Notes: generated by a model not told the origin, from the sequence alone. Counted from the stretch's first letter, positions 1,277-42,266 are shown. The stretch: DNA of 64,000 nt from a virus (IMGVR_UViG_3300042922_000661:1-64000); one strand, 5' to 3'. Made by a program: numbers and translations.

Positions 1277-4200
1277 TATGCGAAATCTCCAATTCCAAAC
1301 TGACCACCATTAATTTTACGCCCAATCAATTGCCTGAAATAAACACCCATTCCGCGACCATCCGAAACGTTGGTATTAATTCCTGTTAAAACACAACCAC
1401 CAGGAACTTCATACGCCCGCCCTTGGCCAGTGCCTGAACCGCCAGAATACTGTTGGCCGCCACGTCCGAAATCTGACATGGCATTACTCGTCATTTCGTT
1501 GTAGCCTTGGTTACGAATCCATGACAACGCACCGGAAAGACTCGTGTTCCCCCCGAAATTACTGAAAATCGTGTATCCATCAGTAACATTACCCATGCGT
1601 ACAATGTCGCCGTTTTCCTGATAAGTTACCCCTCGACCGCCCCATTGCACGCTAACGTTGCCACCAAACCAACCGCCTCCCGAGACGCTCACATTTTGTC
1701 CGACTGATAACATCCCCCCTACGGATAAACCTCCTCCGACTGTCACATTGTGGGACATAGTTACCGCCCCACTATTGCCATTGAATGCAAATGGTCGCAA
1801 ATTGTTCCATGTGCCATCCGGATCATTTTCATTCGTGACCAGCAAATAATAGTTACTACCATCGAATCGGTGAATCATCCCCATCCGTCCAGAAGCTGGA
1901 CGGATACGCAAACCATCTGCGTCTTCTGCAACTACTCTGCCATAGACATACAACTTATTAACGGTAGTACGAGTCGTTAAAACGTTATTAGCGTAAGAGT
2001 CGAGAATGCCATCACCAGGGCAAACAAAGCCTGTATCAGAGTCACCAATATTGATAGAACCAGAGGTAGTATTAAGATTCCCGGTACCTGCATTTCCAAT
2101 AGAAATACGGTTAATGGCATTTAATGTATTTGCAGTAATTCTGCCATCTACATCGATTGACTTAAGAACGACTAAACCTTGTTCCATCCTGACCGTGCCG
2201 TTAGCCAGGTTAAATGCGATGGGCCGAAGGTCATTATACTTACCGTCAGTATCACCTTTGTTTGTAGCGAGTAAGTAAAAACTCTCATTATCATTTCTGA
2301 GAATGGCCGCATAATCAGCAGACTTCGCACGGAAAGCAAGCCCACCATTTTTTTGAACAATTTCATCCGCAATAGTGACTTTCTTTTCAATAGACACTTG
2401 CCCTTTGAAACGCGCGTCTGTCCGTACATCCAGCCCCACACTGCTAACAGGTAATGCGATATCCGTTCCGCCAATAATGGTCTGTCCGCGCATATAGTTT
2501 GGCGCGGTTCCCTGCATAAATAGGTTCCAGCGGTTTAAACCTTCGCGTGCTGTCTGAAGACCCTCAAAGGCATAGGCCGTTGCAATAACAGGGCTGGCTT
2601 TGTCATGCCCGCGGAACGAAGACATGAGCGCTACAGCTGCATTTTTGTTAACAACACTGCTGTTACCCCAAAATTCAACCACTTCAGCCACGGTTTGTCC
2701 GGTATTACCGTCACCTACTGACATTTCCACACCGAAACCAATGCCGCGTGTAGTCGCATCTGCTCCGATATTTGCATATGCCATCGCAACAATCTGCGAC
2801 GTTCCGGACATATTGCCTTTTCCGGGCGTGGTATTTCCAAGCGTCAGCATGCGGCTAGTACTGTCACTGCCACTACCTAATACAAGATGCCCTTTATCGC
2901 TGAATAGTGCGATATTCTGATTCCACGTTACGCCATTATCACGGCTATCTACGTCAAGACGCAGGCTGCTGCCGTCGCCTCTTAAGCGGAAGCCCGCCGC
3001 GTCCGCGTCACGGTCAATGAAAGTAAGTGTTGGTGCAAAGCTGTTAACCGTGATCCCTTGAGTGCCATCATTACTGCTGCCCGTAACCACAAGCGCAGCA
3101 TTGGTCAAATCGCCTACGGCTGTCGCACCTTTCGCCAGTACTTTTACCGGGCCAGTAAAGTCTGCACCACCAGTCACAGAAAGATTGCCGCCAACAGAAG
3201 CGTTATTGCGGAGGTTCATTGTCGATACGTTGGTTTCACCAGTGCCATCGCCTGACAATGTAAGCCACGTATTAGGAATAGAGTTGCCCCAGGTGACGGT
3301 ATCGGTACTGTCTGTAGACTGGCCCATATACCAGTGCAGAGAGTTATCCGCCTTTCGCCCGCGCAGATAATAGGCTTTGTCTCTGGTTTTAGCCTTCAGC
3401 TGCAGCGCAACCGAGTCCGCAGTAAAAAGTCCCGCGCCGTCAGACGTCAGACCTCCGCCACCAGTGATAGCCAGCCCGCCAGCACCCTGCAGCGTGGCTA
3501 AGCCGTCGCCACTGTTGAGTACAAAGCGCGCCGTGACCGTACCTGATGCCGAGCGCGCATCCAGCGCGATTCTTCCGCCGCCGTGCGTCATGTTAGTAGT
3601 CGTTAAGCCGCCGAGAATCCTGCCACTCCACGCATCGCCTCCCGTGGCCGCAACACGGCCAACGATCTGCATGATGTCTGTTTCGTATGCCGGGGGTTTA
3701 TCGTCAGGCTGATCCGTCCGCAAAAATGTCATTGACGGTACAGACGGCTCAGAGCGGATCACACCAATACGGTATCCAGCGCTGATTTGAGAACCAACGT
3801 CCAGATTTTTTGAGACCGTCAGCTTTGGCGTATTGATATTGGTTAGCTTACTTGTGCTGGTAATATCGTCGTTATCGCCTGCCTTTGCCGCGCCCAGATT
3901 AATCAGGTCCGCCAGCGTCATGCTGGCGCTGTCCATCACCTTCCGCCAGCCGTTTTTATCCGCACCGGCTGACAGCCCGGACCACGCCCAGTCGCCTGAA
4001 ACTTTACCGGCCAAACGCAGATACATCATGCCACCCTGCGCCACAAGCAGCTGTAGAAGTGCAGCGTCGGCATCATATTTACGGCGCATGTTGAATAGCT
4101 GGCCACGCAGTGTCTGCGTGGTTTTGCCAAGATCAATCGGGCCATCACTGAAGGTGCCGCTCAGTGTCCAGAAGGCATTTTGCTCAGTCACAGATACGTC

Positions 4201-37647: not shown

Positions 37648-38529
37648 ATGGAAAATGACGACGAAATCAAGACGATAGGTGATGCTCTTGTATACAGCTC
37701 TGAGCAAGAAGAAAAAAGTTATACACTGACACCTACCTCTAATCGGACTGTCCAGCCGATCGCGTTGATGCGTTTGGGTGTATTTGTGCCTGCTGTTCGC
37801 AATAAGCCCCAGCGCGGTAATGCCGTTATCGATGCCTCCGCAGATTTCGGGCAGCTTGAAATCGCTAAAGCTGAGGGTTACACCAATATCATGATCAAGG
37901 GCAGCAGACTTGATATGAGCACTGATTTTAAGACATGGATTGGTGCTATCCGGGCGTTCAGCAAATATGGTGCTGATAGTAATCGCATTAAGTTACCATT
38001 TACCGAATTTGCGAAGCTATGCGGAATTGCCGTAGATGATATCAACCAGCGTTCGCGTGATCGCTTCTTCAACTCCTTTCTAAGACTGGCCTCGCTTGTT
38101 ATCTCGTTTAAAAACAAAGACGGCAGCAAGGTGACAATAACGCATCTGCTTAATAGCGCTCATTTTGACACTGAGAAGGACGTGATTACTTTGGAAGGGG
38201 ATTCCCGACTATGGGAGCTTTATGCCTTCGATCACAAGGTATTACTGCAGTTAAAGGCTATCCAGGCACTGCCGCGTAAAGAGTCCGCCCAGGCGCTCTA
38301 CGTCTACATCGAGAGCCTGCCTACTGGATTCCTTCAAGTGTCTCTGGAGCGCCTTCGTGATCGCCTCAACCTGAACTCCACTATCAGCACACAGAACAAC
38401 GTCGTCCGTAAGGCCATGAAAGAGCTGGCTGACATTGGTTACTTGTCGTTTACGGAAGTTAAGAAGAATGGCGTGGTCTATTTCCAGATTCACTCACGTA
38501 AGCCTGACCTTCTGCCTAACAAAGAATAA
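37648..38529 (+). CDS. repA: Replication initiator RepA (P1/RepFIB family)
   Basis: 293 aa; TVQP.ALMRLGVFVP, G.RLDM.TDFK.W.G and AQALY..IESLP motifs; flanked by iterons. Confidence 0.95.
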   Translation: MENDDEIKTIGDALVYSSEQEEKSYTLTPTSNRTVQPIALMRLGVFVPAVRNKPQRGNAVIDASADFGQLEIAKAEGYTNIMIKGSRLDMSTDFKTWIGAIRAFSKYGADSNRIKLPFTEFAKLCGIAVDDINQRSRDRFFNSFLRLASLVISFKNKDGSKVTITHLLNSAHFDTEKDVITLEGDSRLWELYAFDHKVLLQLKAIQALPRKESAQALYVYIESLPTGFLQVSLERLRDRLNLNSTISTQNNVVRKAMKELADIGYLSFTEVKKNGVVYFQIHSRKPDLLPNKE

Positions 38530-39107: not shown

Positions 39108-39908
39108 CTATCTTGACTTAAAGGGATATCCAAACGGCTGTAATCCAGGCCAAGCTCTACCAGATAGAGAAGGATGATCTGACGGATGCTCATCGTCTAC
39201 CGCATGGATATTTATAGGCTCAATACGGCTCGTCTCAGGATTCTGCACATTCAGCGTCAAGCTGATTTTTGTGAGGTCAGCACCTTTAGCAATAGCCAGA
39301 GTTAGCTGATGTTCCAACTGTGATACAAGCGAATCTTTGGCTGCCATGTTCTCAGTATTGGATGTTGGAACATACGCTGCGGCCATGCGTTCGGCTAGAG
39401 TTGGCACGTTTAAAATCTGCCACAGCTTATCAGTTCTCTTTGATCCATATGGTATACCTAGCATGCCGGGCAAATGTGCTTGAACACCTCGTAACACTTG
39501 AGCTTGACGACGTAGGTCGTCTATATTCAAAAACTGTGTAGTGAAATGATATTCTTCTTTCGAGGTTGCACCTTCTTCATCCTCTTCGCCTCGTTCGCTG
39601 CTCGTTAGGATGGAATACAAAGTTTGTGTGCTTAAAGCGTCAGTGTCGGTAATTAGTAAATCTTCCGGACTGATAGTTTTCATCGTGCCAATAGGTATAC
39701 CGTTAAGATCACTTCCTGATGCAGCATTTAGGGACGCTTCTTCTTTAGAATCAGGTTTAGTAGCCGCATTGATCACTACAGCCATCTCGTCCATAGAGCG
39801 CTCTGCAGCTCTTTTTACGATATCTTGCGCCTGCGGCGATGCCTCTGGGCCAAACAGGTCCAGAAGCGAATACTCATCAGGTGCAAAGGCTTCAGATTCA
39901 AATGACAT
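39108..39908 (-). CDS. Hypothetical acidic protein downstream of the zeta toxin gene
   Basis: 266 aa; AGGAG SD; 25 bp after the zeta stop; terminator at ~39047-39078. Confidence 0.7.
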   Translation of the reverse strand: MSFESEAFAPDEYSLLDLFGPEASPQAQDIVKRAAERSMDEMAVVINAATKPDSKEEASLNAASGSDLNGIPIGTMKTISPEDLLITDTDALSTQTLYSILTSSERGEEDEEGATSKEEYHFTTQFLNIDDLRRQAQVLRGVQAHLPGMLGIPYGSKRTDKLWQILNVPTLAERMAAAYVPTSNTENMAAKDSLVSQLEHQLTLAIAKGADLTKISLTLNVQNPETSRIEPINIHAVDDEHPSDHPSLSGRAWPGLQPFGYPFKSR

Positions 39909-39933: not shown

Positions 39934-40653
39934 TTATACGCCTATATGTGCCAAGTCATCAATGCAAGTGTAAGGGCAATGATGGGAGTCAGCCCAGGTA
40001 TCTTTTGTCACGTTTCGAATTGTCTCAATGCTGAAGCCCGTAGGATTGGCTGGTTCTCTATAACGACGGAAAACGTTCAATGTGAATTGACCATCATACT
40101 TTTCAAGAACATGCTTTATAACTTTCCTGCCGTTGATAAAGTTATTCTTCAGCACAGCAAGTGGGACAACGCGTGATCTCTGCTGCGCGTATACCCAAGC
40201 AATTGCCGGATCTAGGTATACATAATTTAGGATTAATGTGTAACCAGCTGCGATAGCAGCATCAAAGTTACTATCAGCGATACCTTTACTAGCAAACGTT
40301 GAGTCCATGATTATCTGATAGCGATTATCAAGAGCGCGAGCGTAAATGGCATTAACCATACTGGATGCAGGCTTTTGAAAGCAAACAGAATTTGCTTCGT
40401 TGTAATAGGGGAACCACCAGCGGAAATCATCGGCGTCAATACGGACAAAGTTCGTCTGCTTACCACCGAGGATGACATTATTTATTAATTCAGTCTTTCC
40501 GGATGCAGGTGAGCCAGCCATAAAAACTATCCCGCGTGCGCCCTCATTGATAGGCTTTTTTTCTTTAGTCAGATGGCTATATAAAACATCTTCTACAGCG
40601 TCTTTTACCTGTAGCCCCAGAGGCTCAAGCAAAGTTTTATCCATAAAATCCAT
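39934..40653 (-). CDS. Zeta toxin family P-loop kinase
   Basis: MAGSPASGKT Walker A, IDADDFR, I.DST, R.R.VP. Start moved to ATG 40653 (AGGA SD) because the longer ORF runs through a terminator. Confidence 0.85.
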   Translation of the reverse strand: MDFMDKTLLEPLGLQVKDAVEDVLYSHLTKEKKPINEGARGIVFMAGSPASGKTELINNVILGGKQTNFVRIDADDFRWWFPYYNEANSVCFQKPASSMVNAIYARALDNRYQIIMDSTFASKGIADSNFDAAIAAGYTLILNYVYLDPAIAWVYAQQRSRVVPLAVLKNNFINGRKVIKHVLEKYDGQFTLNVFRRYREPANPTGFSIETIRNVTKDTWADSHHCPYTCIDDLAHIGV

Positions 40654-40727
40654 GATTTCATCCTGACTGTGTGAATAGCTTAATATCGGCAAAAGTAGAT
40701 ATTTGTTCAAGTCGCTCGATTGAGAAT

Positions 40728-40753
40728 AAAAAAAACCGCCCGAAGGCGGCTTC
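40728..40753 (-). terminator. Intrinsic terminator of the small-peptide mRNA
   Basis: GCCGCC-TTCG-GGCGG followed by T8, a few nt after the peptide stop codon. Confidence 0.85.
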
Positions 40754-40756
40754 ATA

Positions 40757-40879
40757 TCAGTTGCTATGGATGACTGTCACCGGCACGTGGATGTAGGTAA
40801 TGATGTTCATACCTTCACCTCCGTTTGGGTGCAGTAATGCCACCAGCAACGACACAACGTAAAATGCTTTACGTGTCAT
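40757..40879 (-). CDS. 40-aa hydrophobic peptide, putative type I toxin
   Basis: MTRKAFYVVSLLVALLHPNGGEGMNIITYIHVPVTVIHSN; TAAGG SD 8 nt upstream; own terminator; absent from the ORF track because of its size. Confidence 0.7.
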   Translation of the reverse strand: MTRKAFYVVSLLVALLHPNGGEGMNIITYIHVPVTVIHSN

Positions 40880-41159
40880 TGTTTAGGCCTTACAGGTTCT
40901 GACCAGTGGCGTTCGGTGCGCCCCGCAAGACATAAAACGCATGCTTGTGTTCGGTCGAAGTTAATCGGGCAAGTAAGGTACCGAATCGGCTGAGAATCCA
41001 CCTCACTGCTTCGTCTCTACTAAGGATGCCACAACCACACAGGTGGTTTCATTGCCTTTCTTCCCATGCGTGAATAATTTGCCGAAAAAAGTATCATTCT
41101 GATGTTTTTGGCTTTTCCTACAGCACAACTTTCCTGAAAGAGTTTTTTCAAAAGTCGGG

Positions 41160-41187
41160 TTGCAAAGGAGGTCATGGGACGTATACT
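41160..41187 (+). promoter_or_regulatory. Sigma70 promoter of the sRNA
   Basis: TTGCAA-16 bp-TATACT, 7 nt upstream of the 18-nt antisense segment. Confidence 0.7.
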
Positions 41188-41193
41188 GGCGTT

Positions 41194-41330
41194 GAAAACG
41201 CATGCTTGTGTTTGCTGTTTTTAGCAAATCAGCAGTGGTGAAAATTGCCTGAGAACAATTTTCGCCTTCTGGAGAAATGCCTGAGAACATTTTTCTGGAT
41301 TCAATAAAGCCGCCTACGGGCGGTTTTTTT
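41194..41330 (+). ncRNA. Putative antitoxin sRNA (~135 nt)
   Basis: Bounded by a promoter and a terminator; its 5' 18 nt equal 40934-40951 (antisense to the peptide mRNA leader); three hairpins, two with an identical CCUGAGAA loop. Confidence 0.75.
41307..41330 (+). terminator. sRNA intrinsic terminator
   Basis: GCCGCC-TACG-GGCGG-T7. Confidence 0.85.
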
Positions 41331-41948
41331 GTATCTATAACAAGCATATCGCAACCACGCTTCCCGTTCATAGCCCTTGAAGGCAGAGCAATATTACTTT
41401 GGAAGCTACTACTCAAAATCTCATCCACCAGACGTTTTCGCGCCTGAGTCATATCGTAGGTTCAACACGCCACACGCCTCAAACACTATCGCTTCTATTG
41501 TGAGTGTTAATACACAAAGCAAAGCAACCTTCTGACGCATTCTACCACGCTGGCTTGCGTGACTCACAATTTTGAGATGCACGCTTACAGCAAGAATATG
41601 TTGGCAATTTCTACATCTTACCTGTGTTTTTTTACAGCTTTCAACTCCATGCAATGAATAGCCTCGCACACCGTGCATGCCCTTCATACCGTGGCTTAGC
41701 CAGAATCATAGATGTAAAGATTCCCGCTTAACAAGCACACCCTGGTAAGGGTTGTATGATTTGTATTTGCGCAACAACTGTAAAGCCAGCAACGCTGGGC
41801 CTTGTAGCCCGAAAAAATTTTTTGTAAATGTCACTGGCCAGAAAAAGGGCTTAAAAAGCCCCTAATGATTAGCCTTGAGGAAGGTAGCGCAAGCTATGAG
41901 AGCATGACTTGCGCAGGCAAAGATAAAATGCGGGATGATGGCGGGTTC

Positions 41949-42246: not shown

Positions 42247-42266
42247 TACTGTATTTTTGTACAGTA
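42247..42266. promoter_or_regulatory. LexA (SOS) box
   Basis: TACTGTATTTTTGTACAGTA (CTGT-N8-ACAG) just upstream of the umuD SD. Confidence 0.92.

Follow-up and report, generated by a model that had tools for sequence, protein, structure and literature searches.

The locus described here lies on IMGVR_UViG_3300042922_000661, within a stretch of 64,000 nt (hereafter the window; coordinates are counted from its first letter unless another record is named), and comprises two small genes transcribed away from each other. The minus strand encodes a 40-aa peptide (MTRKAFYVVSLLVALLHPNGGEGMNIITYIHVPVTVIHSN, 40757..40879), a putative toxin whose gene is marked by coding selection and homologs; the plus strand encodes a predicted sRNA of ~140 nt (41194..41334), its putative antitoxin. 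An earlier note on this DNA had described the peptide, with a basic start, a hydrophobic core, a beta-branched tail, and a terminator behind its gene; a plus-strand promoter, TTGCAA-16-TATACT, with a short transcript and a near-identical terminator; and an 18-nt repeat that makes the sRNA 5′ end exactly complementary to the peptide leader. All of these elements were recovered. The virus record that bears the locus is complete at 95 kb and has terminal repeats; the replicon carries genes for tail sheath, tail tube, baseplate, a plasmid-type Rep, and a Cre-like recombinase. By this gene content it is a P1-like phage-plasmid; the same note had placed the locus on a phage-plasmid.

The Peptide ORF Varies as a Coding Gene

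The peptide begins with a basic N terminus (R3, K4), followed by a hydrophobic core (F6-L16) and a beta-branched tail. The family pattern is a basic N terminus, VVSLLVALL, x-TY-x-GGEGM, and NINT-x-INAPVTVIHS[NK]. When 11 distinct sequences were compared, the start, stop, and frame of the ORF were maintained, eight codons showed synonymous variation only, and pN/pS was 0.37 overall and 0.19 for codons 9-40; an insertion of two codons in one homolog is in frame. We conclude from this pattern of substitutions that the ORF is a genuine coding gene under purifying selection. The gene ends in a Rho-independent terminator that is present at all loci (GAAGCCGCC-UUCG-GGCGGUUUU followed by a U-tract; 40728..40756, minus strand), with a GC-rich stem at 40753-40732.

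Hydropathy analysis divides the peptide into 2-3 basic residues, a hydrophobic core of 11-12 residues, a polar Gly/Asn-rich linker, and a short beta-branched patch. This profile is close to that of E. coli TimP. The core is shorter than a standard transmembrane helix. An AlphaFold2 model of low confidence (pLDDT 64) contains a helix at residues 4-16 only. A library-wide HMM search returned just nine proteins, six of them clear relatives. Pfam gave no family for the peptide at E ≤ 1, and searches of NCBIfam and the ESM atlas gave no match.

Inside the ORF, a perfect SD-like sequence, GGAGGUGAAGGU (window 40808-40822, minus strand), stands 7 nt before Met24, and a start at this internal codon would yield a 17-aa peptide, MNIITYIHVPVTVIHSN. 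Met24 is kept in most homologs; it is replaced by Phe in P0013 and by Trp in the class F peptides (L033 and L035).

Predicted Leader Architecture and a Candidate Peptide Promoter

The SD of the peptide ORF, UAAGG at 40892-40888 (minus strand), is located 8 nt before the AUG. It lies in a conserved, almost invariant hairpin (40888..40931, minus strand), recognized by fold and conservation, which is predicted to sequester it completely: in the predicted mRNA, P(unpaired) of the SD is 0.00. The SD reported in the earlier note is therefore present, but it is weak and predicted to be fully base-paired. Immediately 5′ of the hairpin lies the target of the sRNA tail, which the centroid fold leaves unpaired. 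Nearer the mRNA 5′ end, the leader stem-loop SL1 (40969..41009, minus strand) displays the 8-nt loop AUUCUCAG (loop core 40990-40996; P(unpaired) = 0.76), and its stems show two compensatory pairs in one analysis and six in another.

A -35/-10 scan of the minus strand found no promoter for the peptide gene. A candidate extended -10 element, TGG-CATCCT (41023..41031, minus strand), was picked out by conservation only: classes A, B, C, E, and F (the seed classes described below) share its TG, -11A, and -7T and differ in the flanks. Class D (pEuc3, L031) has another sequence, GAGTATATT, at this position, so the motif is not universal. The peptide mRNA would start near 41017, ~7 nt after TGGCATCCT, and would be ~290 nt long. 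The spacer between the sRNA and peptide promoters is hypervariable and rich in indels, and both transcribed blocks are conserved. Upstream of the candidate peptide promoter, a block conserved in most classes, AAAGGCAAT(GAAACCAC) (window 41044-41062, minus strand), lies at a varying distance from the -10 element and may be a regulator site.

Two further candidate features of this region were rejected. A mok-like uORF ending in AUGA is present in the window but is not conserved: in classes A (L001) and B, it contains stops or lacks a start. SOS control was rejected as well: no CTG-N10-CAG occurs at either promoter, the nearest boxes being at 41622 and 42249. The first of these LexA-box-like sites (41622-41637, CTGTGTTTTTTTACAG) is found in an apparently non-coding stretch ~290 bp to the right of the sRNA terminator, where no gene is assigned to it; the second (42249-42264, CTGTATTTTTGTACAG) is just upstream of umuD (42280).

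A Predicted sRNA Gene on the Plus Strand

A promoter scan of the plus strand identified TTGCAA-16-TATACT at 41160..41187. Both hexamers are invariant at all loci, even the most divergent ones. A terminator scan identified AAAGCCGCC-UACG-GGCGGUUUU followed by a U-tract (41306..41334), with the stem at 41306-41327 and U7. From this promoter and this terminator, we derive an sRNA of ~140 nt (about 138-141 nt, with the predicted start at 41194/41195). According to its fold and covariation, it would consist of a 5′ tail, SL1, twin hairpins SL2 (41237..41266) and SL3 (41268..41299), and the terminator. Fold and repeat comparison mark SL3 as a tandem duplicate of SL2; the two hairpins present the same loop, CCUGAGAA, at 41248-41255 and 41280-41287, respectively, and the loop is complementary to that of the leader.

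The fold z-score of the sRNA is -6.55. Among 11 distinct sequences, compensatory double changes were seen in 10 of 42 sRNA pairs (shuffles: 4.5 ± 1.5, with at least 10 in 1 of 500). Helix positions were paired in 96% of cases, versus 39-53% when partners were slid by 1-3 columns, and the SL2 helix, with five compensatory pairs, was 100% paired. A 149-aa ORF antisense to the sRNA (41003-41452, minus strand) was rejected, its frame being broken by indels of the sRNA region in relatives. In L001 (pFC61912-B_D, 1533-1859, minus strand), PGAP lists it as a 108-aa hypothetical CDS, which, given the broken frame, is probably a false gene call.

The terminators of the peptide and sRNA genes are near-identical (a 42-nt inverted repeat, 79%). 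Family-wide, both (window 40728-40755 and 41304-41345) form about the same hairpin, GCCGCC-UNCG-GGCGGC. This likeness may stem from duplication, from selection for strong termination, or from a third contact between the RNAs.

The best Rfam match of the locus was to RNAI (RF00106), at chance level (27 bits versus a gathering score of 47, E = 0.0095). Together with the multi-hairpin shape and its 7-8-nt loops, this match could be taken to place the plus-strand RNA among the countertranscripts of the RNAI/CopA type, which control replication or copy number; the small ORF would then be incidental. The RNA is, however, antisense to no rep gene or primer, and within the 64-kb window (of the 95-kb genome) its complementary partners are found in the peptide leader only. 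Since, in addition, the ORF is under selection at the protein level and the module travels with two different replicon types (see below), we give such a role hardly any credence and treat the RNA as a partner of the peptide mRNA.

The sRNA Tail and Loops Covary with the Leader

The 18-nt repeat AAAACGCATGCTTGTGTT occurs at 40934-40951 and 41195-41212. When up to three mismatches were allowed, these were the only two copies in the 64-kb window; the expected number was 0.07, and none of 100 shuffles contained two copies. The copies are direct repeats read from opposite strands, so that the 5′ seed of the sRNA (41195..41212, plus strand) is exactly complementary to a target in the mRNA leader (AACACAAGCAUGCGUUUU, 40934..40951, minus strand), which is marked by the repeat, by covariation, and by the centroid fold. 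Relative to the AUG, this leader copy lies 54/55 to 71/72 nt upstream, the exact figures varying with the way of counting. Once flanking G-U and G-C pairs are counted, the tail duplex of the window extends to 20 bp.

Across ~20 loci, we distinguished six seed classes: GAAAACGCAUGC (the window), GGAAACUUAUGC, GAAUGCUUCUGC, GAGAGCUUCUGC, GAAAACUUCUGC, and GAAGGCUAACGC. At every locus, the leader holds the complement of the seed class of its own sRNA. Cognate tail duplexes comprise 20-21 bp from sRNA nt 1-2, with ΔG of -31.8 to -37.9 kcal/mol, compared with a mean of -21.7 kcal/mol for non-cognate combinations of seed and leader. The site is found 54-81 nt upstream of the AUG in all loci (in class F the distance fits if the sixth codon is taken as the peptide start, giving 42 aa), and the duplex ends 54-55 nt before the AUG. 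Consistently, cofolding of sRNA and leader forms the tail duplex, with a ΔΔG of -19.9 kcal/mol versus -7.2 ± 2.6 kcal/mol for shuffled sRNAs (best, -16.0 kcal/mol). The seed classes follow the phylogeny of the loci, and the covariation therefore amounts to ~5 independent events rather than twenty. These comparisons support the view that tail pairing is under selection, being maintained by covariation across the six classes, and they bear out the divergent pair of the earlier note, in which the sRNA 5′ end would bind far upstream of the SD.

A second contact involves the loops. The CUGAGAA of either sRNA loop pairs with UUCUCAG of the leader loop, engaging 7 of the 8 loop nucleotides. In class B, all three copies of the loop motif have switched jointly, to CUGAUAA/UUAUCAG. 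In class F, the most divergent class (peptide identity, 35%), the loop motif and its closing GGG/CCC stem are retained, and the surrounding leader differs. The match in class C is imperfect, with 5 + 3 bp and a bulge of one nucleotide. Judged by these alignments, the loop site covaries as the tail site does.

Covarying repeats could also arise if the 18-nt repeats and CTGAGAA motifs were DNA-level elements, that is, sites for replication, partition, or a repressor, or products of gene conversion, with the "sRNA" being a structured spacer or leader. The Rep gene (37648-38529) is 2.2 kb from the locus, direct repeats are typical of iterons, and gene conversion could in principle make two direct repeats covary. 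However, the 18-nt repeat is present in two copies and forms no array, and for this reason we reject iterons. One copy begins exactly at the predicted +1 of the invariant promoter in every class. The 7-nt motifs are positioned precisely in hairpin loops whose stems show compensatory changes; they are too short for gene conversion, yet their three copies covary. The same module is moreover found on IncF-type plasmids, with a different replication system. We consider DNA-level elements very improbable and retain pairing between two RNAs as the reading of these motifs.

The Module Occurs on Phage-Plasmids and IncF-Type Plasmids

The ~20 related loci come from P1-like phage-plasmids and IncF-type conjugative plasmids of Pantoea, from IMG/VR contigs, and from metagenome contigs. 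Three Pantoea agglomerans plasmids (~90 kb), five IMG/VR contigs, and eight metagenome contigs carry copies that range from near-identical to diverged; a more sensitive search added P. eucalypti pEuc3 and three IncF-type conjugative Pantoea plasmids (P. stewartii, JZ29, and RSPAM1). The GTDB species-representative genomes yielded no locus when searched with the peptide patterns or a 26-nt leader pattern, and a phage collection gave no real match to the module. The genes that flank the module differ by replicon: they are the Rep gene and umuDC on phage-plasmids, and an SRAP-peptidase gene and a DUF6685 gene on IncF-type plasmids. The module is thus not confined to phage-plasmids and occurs on IncF-type conjugative Pantoea plasmids as well. 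The earlier note had called the locus unannotated. This holds for the sRNA, which is annotated nowhere, but only in part for the ORF, which PGAP lists as a hypothetical protein in two records, both Pantoea plasmids, and leaves without annotation in four.

In the window, the gene for a Zeta_toxin-domain kinase (PF06414, E = 1.3e-28; 39934-40755, minus strand, with the likely start near 40653) is directly downstream of the peptide terminator and is followed by an ORF of 266 aa (39108-39908, minus strand). Elsewhere, a diverged 3′ half of the peptide gene with its terminator is found near psiB in L034 (Pantoea alhagi pPALTYR11Z, 1501-1624), with no recognizable sRNA gene beside it; this copy may be an orphan or a decayed module.

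A run search returned 15 runs containing parts of the stretch, and the contigs of four certain RNA libraries were compared with the locus. These contigs, which are given without strand and may be DNA, cover the peptide leader, the ORF, and the sRNA. One is 2.9 kb long; the others start 40-70 nt before the predicted sRNA start and pass the terminator. Because they carry no strand or end information, they are evidence neither for nor against transcription. In a metatranscriptome, an adapter-flanked insert of 131 nt (40819-40949) ends inside the predicted duplex; as it comes from a single low-depth contig, it is an anecdote only.

Proposed Mechanism and Role of the Peptide

As in type I systems by definition, a small protein gene is accompanied at this locus by an adjacent sRNA gene with extended complementarity to its mRNA. 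On the sequence evidence, we regard the locus as probably belonging to a new sequence family of divergently transcribed, type I toxin-antitoxin-like modules, in which the peptide is the putative toxin. Beyond the earlier note, the comparative analysis adds pairing maintained through six seed classes, a second contact that covaries, and the occurrence on conjugative plasmids. Type I families are few, narrowly distributed, and hard to find, since a tiny ORF and its sRNA are normally unannotated. On P1-like phage-plasmids and IncF-type plasmids of Pantoea, the present one is a candidate for a role in addiction or defence.

We infer the following scheme, including its transcript ends, order of binding, standby-site and RNase III steps, relative RNA stabilities, and toxicity. 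The strong, invariant sigma-70 promoter would produce the ~140-nt sRNA, and a weaker promoter, probably of the extended -10 type, the ~290-nt peptide mRNA. Because a conserved hairpin sequesters the SD, we expect translation to require the single-stranded stretch that adjoins this hairpin on the 5′ side, which may act as a ribosome standby site or as a site from which the structure is opened. One of the two sRNA loops (CCUGAGAA, with the YUNR-type CUGA) would first kiss the leader loop AUUCUCAG at the mRNA 5′ end through 7 bp; the 5′ tail of the sRNA would then zip into the duplex of 20-21 bp beside the SD hairpin. This duplex would block access of the 30S subunit and probably create a substrate for RNase III. 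If the replicon were lost or sRNA synthesis stopped, synthesis of the peptide would begin and the inner membrane would be damaged, and the outcome may be post-segregational killing or abortive defence. We propose this sequence of loop nucleation, tail zippering, and 30S block because the geometry is that of standby-site control, as in tisB/IstR-1 and timP/TimR.

The RNA pairing could be real and the peptide nevertheless no toxin. It might be a small protein of the plasmid or phage at the inner membrane or facing the periplasm, for example an exclusion, signaling, or regulatory peptide, whose synthesis the sRNA keeps low or conditional. Its short hydrophobic core and conserved polar, beta-branched tail (xINAPVTVIHS[NK]), which are under strong purifying selection, would suit such a role, and the tail is more sequence-specific than in most pore-forming type I toxins. 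TimP, the closest analog, still permits growth when expressed endogenously after deletion of timR (PMC7667032). A natural case points in the same direction: on pPA-MXU-90 (L003), an IS3-family element (~3066-3120) interrupts the sRNA terminator in its loop and 3′ arm, and the plasmid is maintained. There, the sRNA promoter, seed, and loops and the peptide gene are intact, and the sRNA would read into the IS. However, precisely because promoter, seed, and loops are kept, this sRNA may still work. The overall design, in which the SD is locked and a strong, divergently transcribed sRNA dedicated to the mRNA recognizes it at two sites, is moreover that of known type I pairs, and on two plasmid backbones unrelated to each other the locus has replication and maintenance genes as neighbors. 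We therefore hold a non-toxic peptide to be unlikely, if far from negligible, and keep the putative toxin as the preferred reading.

A more specific version of the toxin-antitoxin reading can be put forward tentatively. In this version, recognition would follow an obligatory two-site code of twin YUNR loops and a 5′-tail zipper, the six seed classes would represent orthogonal specificity or incompatibility groups, and the peptide would act as a TimP-like membrane toxin targeted by Sec, with an origin independent of TimP or a kinship so remote that nothing but the logic of the RNAs is left of it. If so, related phage-plasmids and conjugative plasmids of Pantoea could co-reside or exclude each other without cross-neutralizing their toxins, and plasmid addiction modules would be tied to the chromosomal timPR class. 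The six co-varying seed classes and the loop contact amount to natural compensatory mutants, which predict the nucleotides to be swapped.

Comparison with Known Systems

Rfam searches at the gathering score, and at E ≤ 10 on an 851-nt region, assigned the locus to no known family, and the same was true of divergent members. Hok/Sok, Ldr/Rdl, TisB/IstR, ShoB/OhsC, Ibs/Sib, and ZorO/OrzO were absent among the 15 sub-threshold matches (E ≤ 10), and the IstR, OhsC, Orz, and Sok models gave no match in the Rfam searches of the locus. The RyfA model (RF00126), to which the earlier note had pointed along with TimR, matched neither at the gathering score, nor at E ≤ 10 in the 851-nt region, nor anywhere in the 95-kb genome, consistent with a locus outside the known families. 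The NCBIfam model NF040796 (toxic_TimP) gave no match at E ≤ 10 for the window peptide and eight relatives, whereas E. coli TimP, the positive control for this HMM, scored 86.8 bits. BLASTP against TimP was null, and hhalign gave a probability of 0.1%.

In tisB/istR-1, zorO/orzO, shoB/ohsC, and dinQ/agrB, the sRNA is encoded divergently and, through ~18-30 complementary nt, binds the 5′ UTR far from the SD. For tisB/IstR-1, occlusion of a ribosome standby site and cleavage of the duplex by RNase III are established. The present locus differs from these four pairs in that its peptide is without a full-length transmembrane helix and the twin kissing loops are an extra feature; tisB and dinQ have a LexA box, unlike both promoters here. 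In the plasmid-borne hok/sok, CopA/CopT, and RNAI/RNAII systems, YUNR loops provide fast recognition, after which a helix propagates from a single-stranded tail. In par (fst) of pAD1, dispersed direct DNA repeats transcribed in opposite directions give rise to several separate contact sites. The RNAs of these plasmid systems are cis-encoded and overlapping, or convergent, whereas those described here are divergent and do not overlap. The mok uORF of hok/sok has no conserved counterpart.

In geometry, the locus comes closest to timP/timR (ryfA/ryfB) of Salmonella and E. coli, a likeness that appears to be one of function, with no detectable sequence homology; the earlier note's view of a new member with an architecture most like timP/timR is supported as far as sequence can show, the models of known families having remained silent. 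Both are divergent gene pairs, and in both, ~18 nt at the 5′ end of the sRNA are complementary, without interruption, to a 5′ UTR site well upstream of the SD, at 66-81 nt from the AUG in E. coli K-12 timP and 54-81 nt in this family. In timP, a stable hairpin, SL4, traps the SD, and the binding site of TimR is upstream of it (PMC11228461); the SD is locked in a hairpin here too. The mRNAs are similar in size (~300 nt for timP, ~290 nt predicted here), and both peptides have 38-41 aa, begin with a hydrophobic core that resembles a signal peptide, and end in a tail that is polar and rich in Asn. The two differ in that timP/timR is chromosomal and this family is borne by plasmids and phage-plasmids, and in that the sRNA is longer than TimR, with twin hairpins whose loops match a second site; the available parts of the timPR literature describe no second loop contact. 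The locus thus offers a second, unrelated timPR-like layout, with a signal-peptide-like putative toxin, a locked SD, and a distal sRNA site, which can help in testing how an sRNA bound at such a distance from the SD blocks translation.
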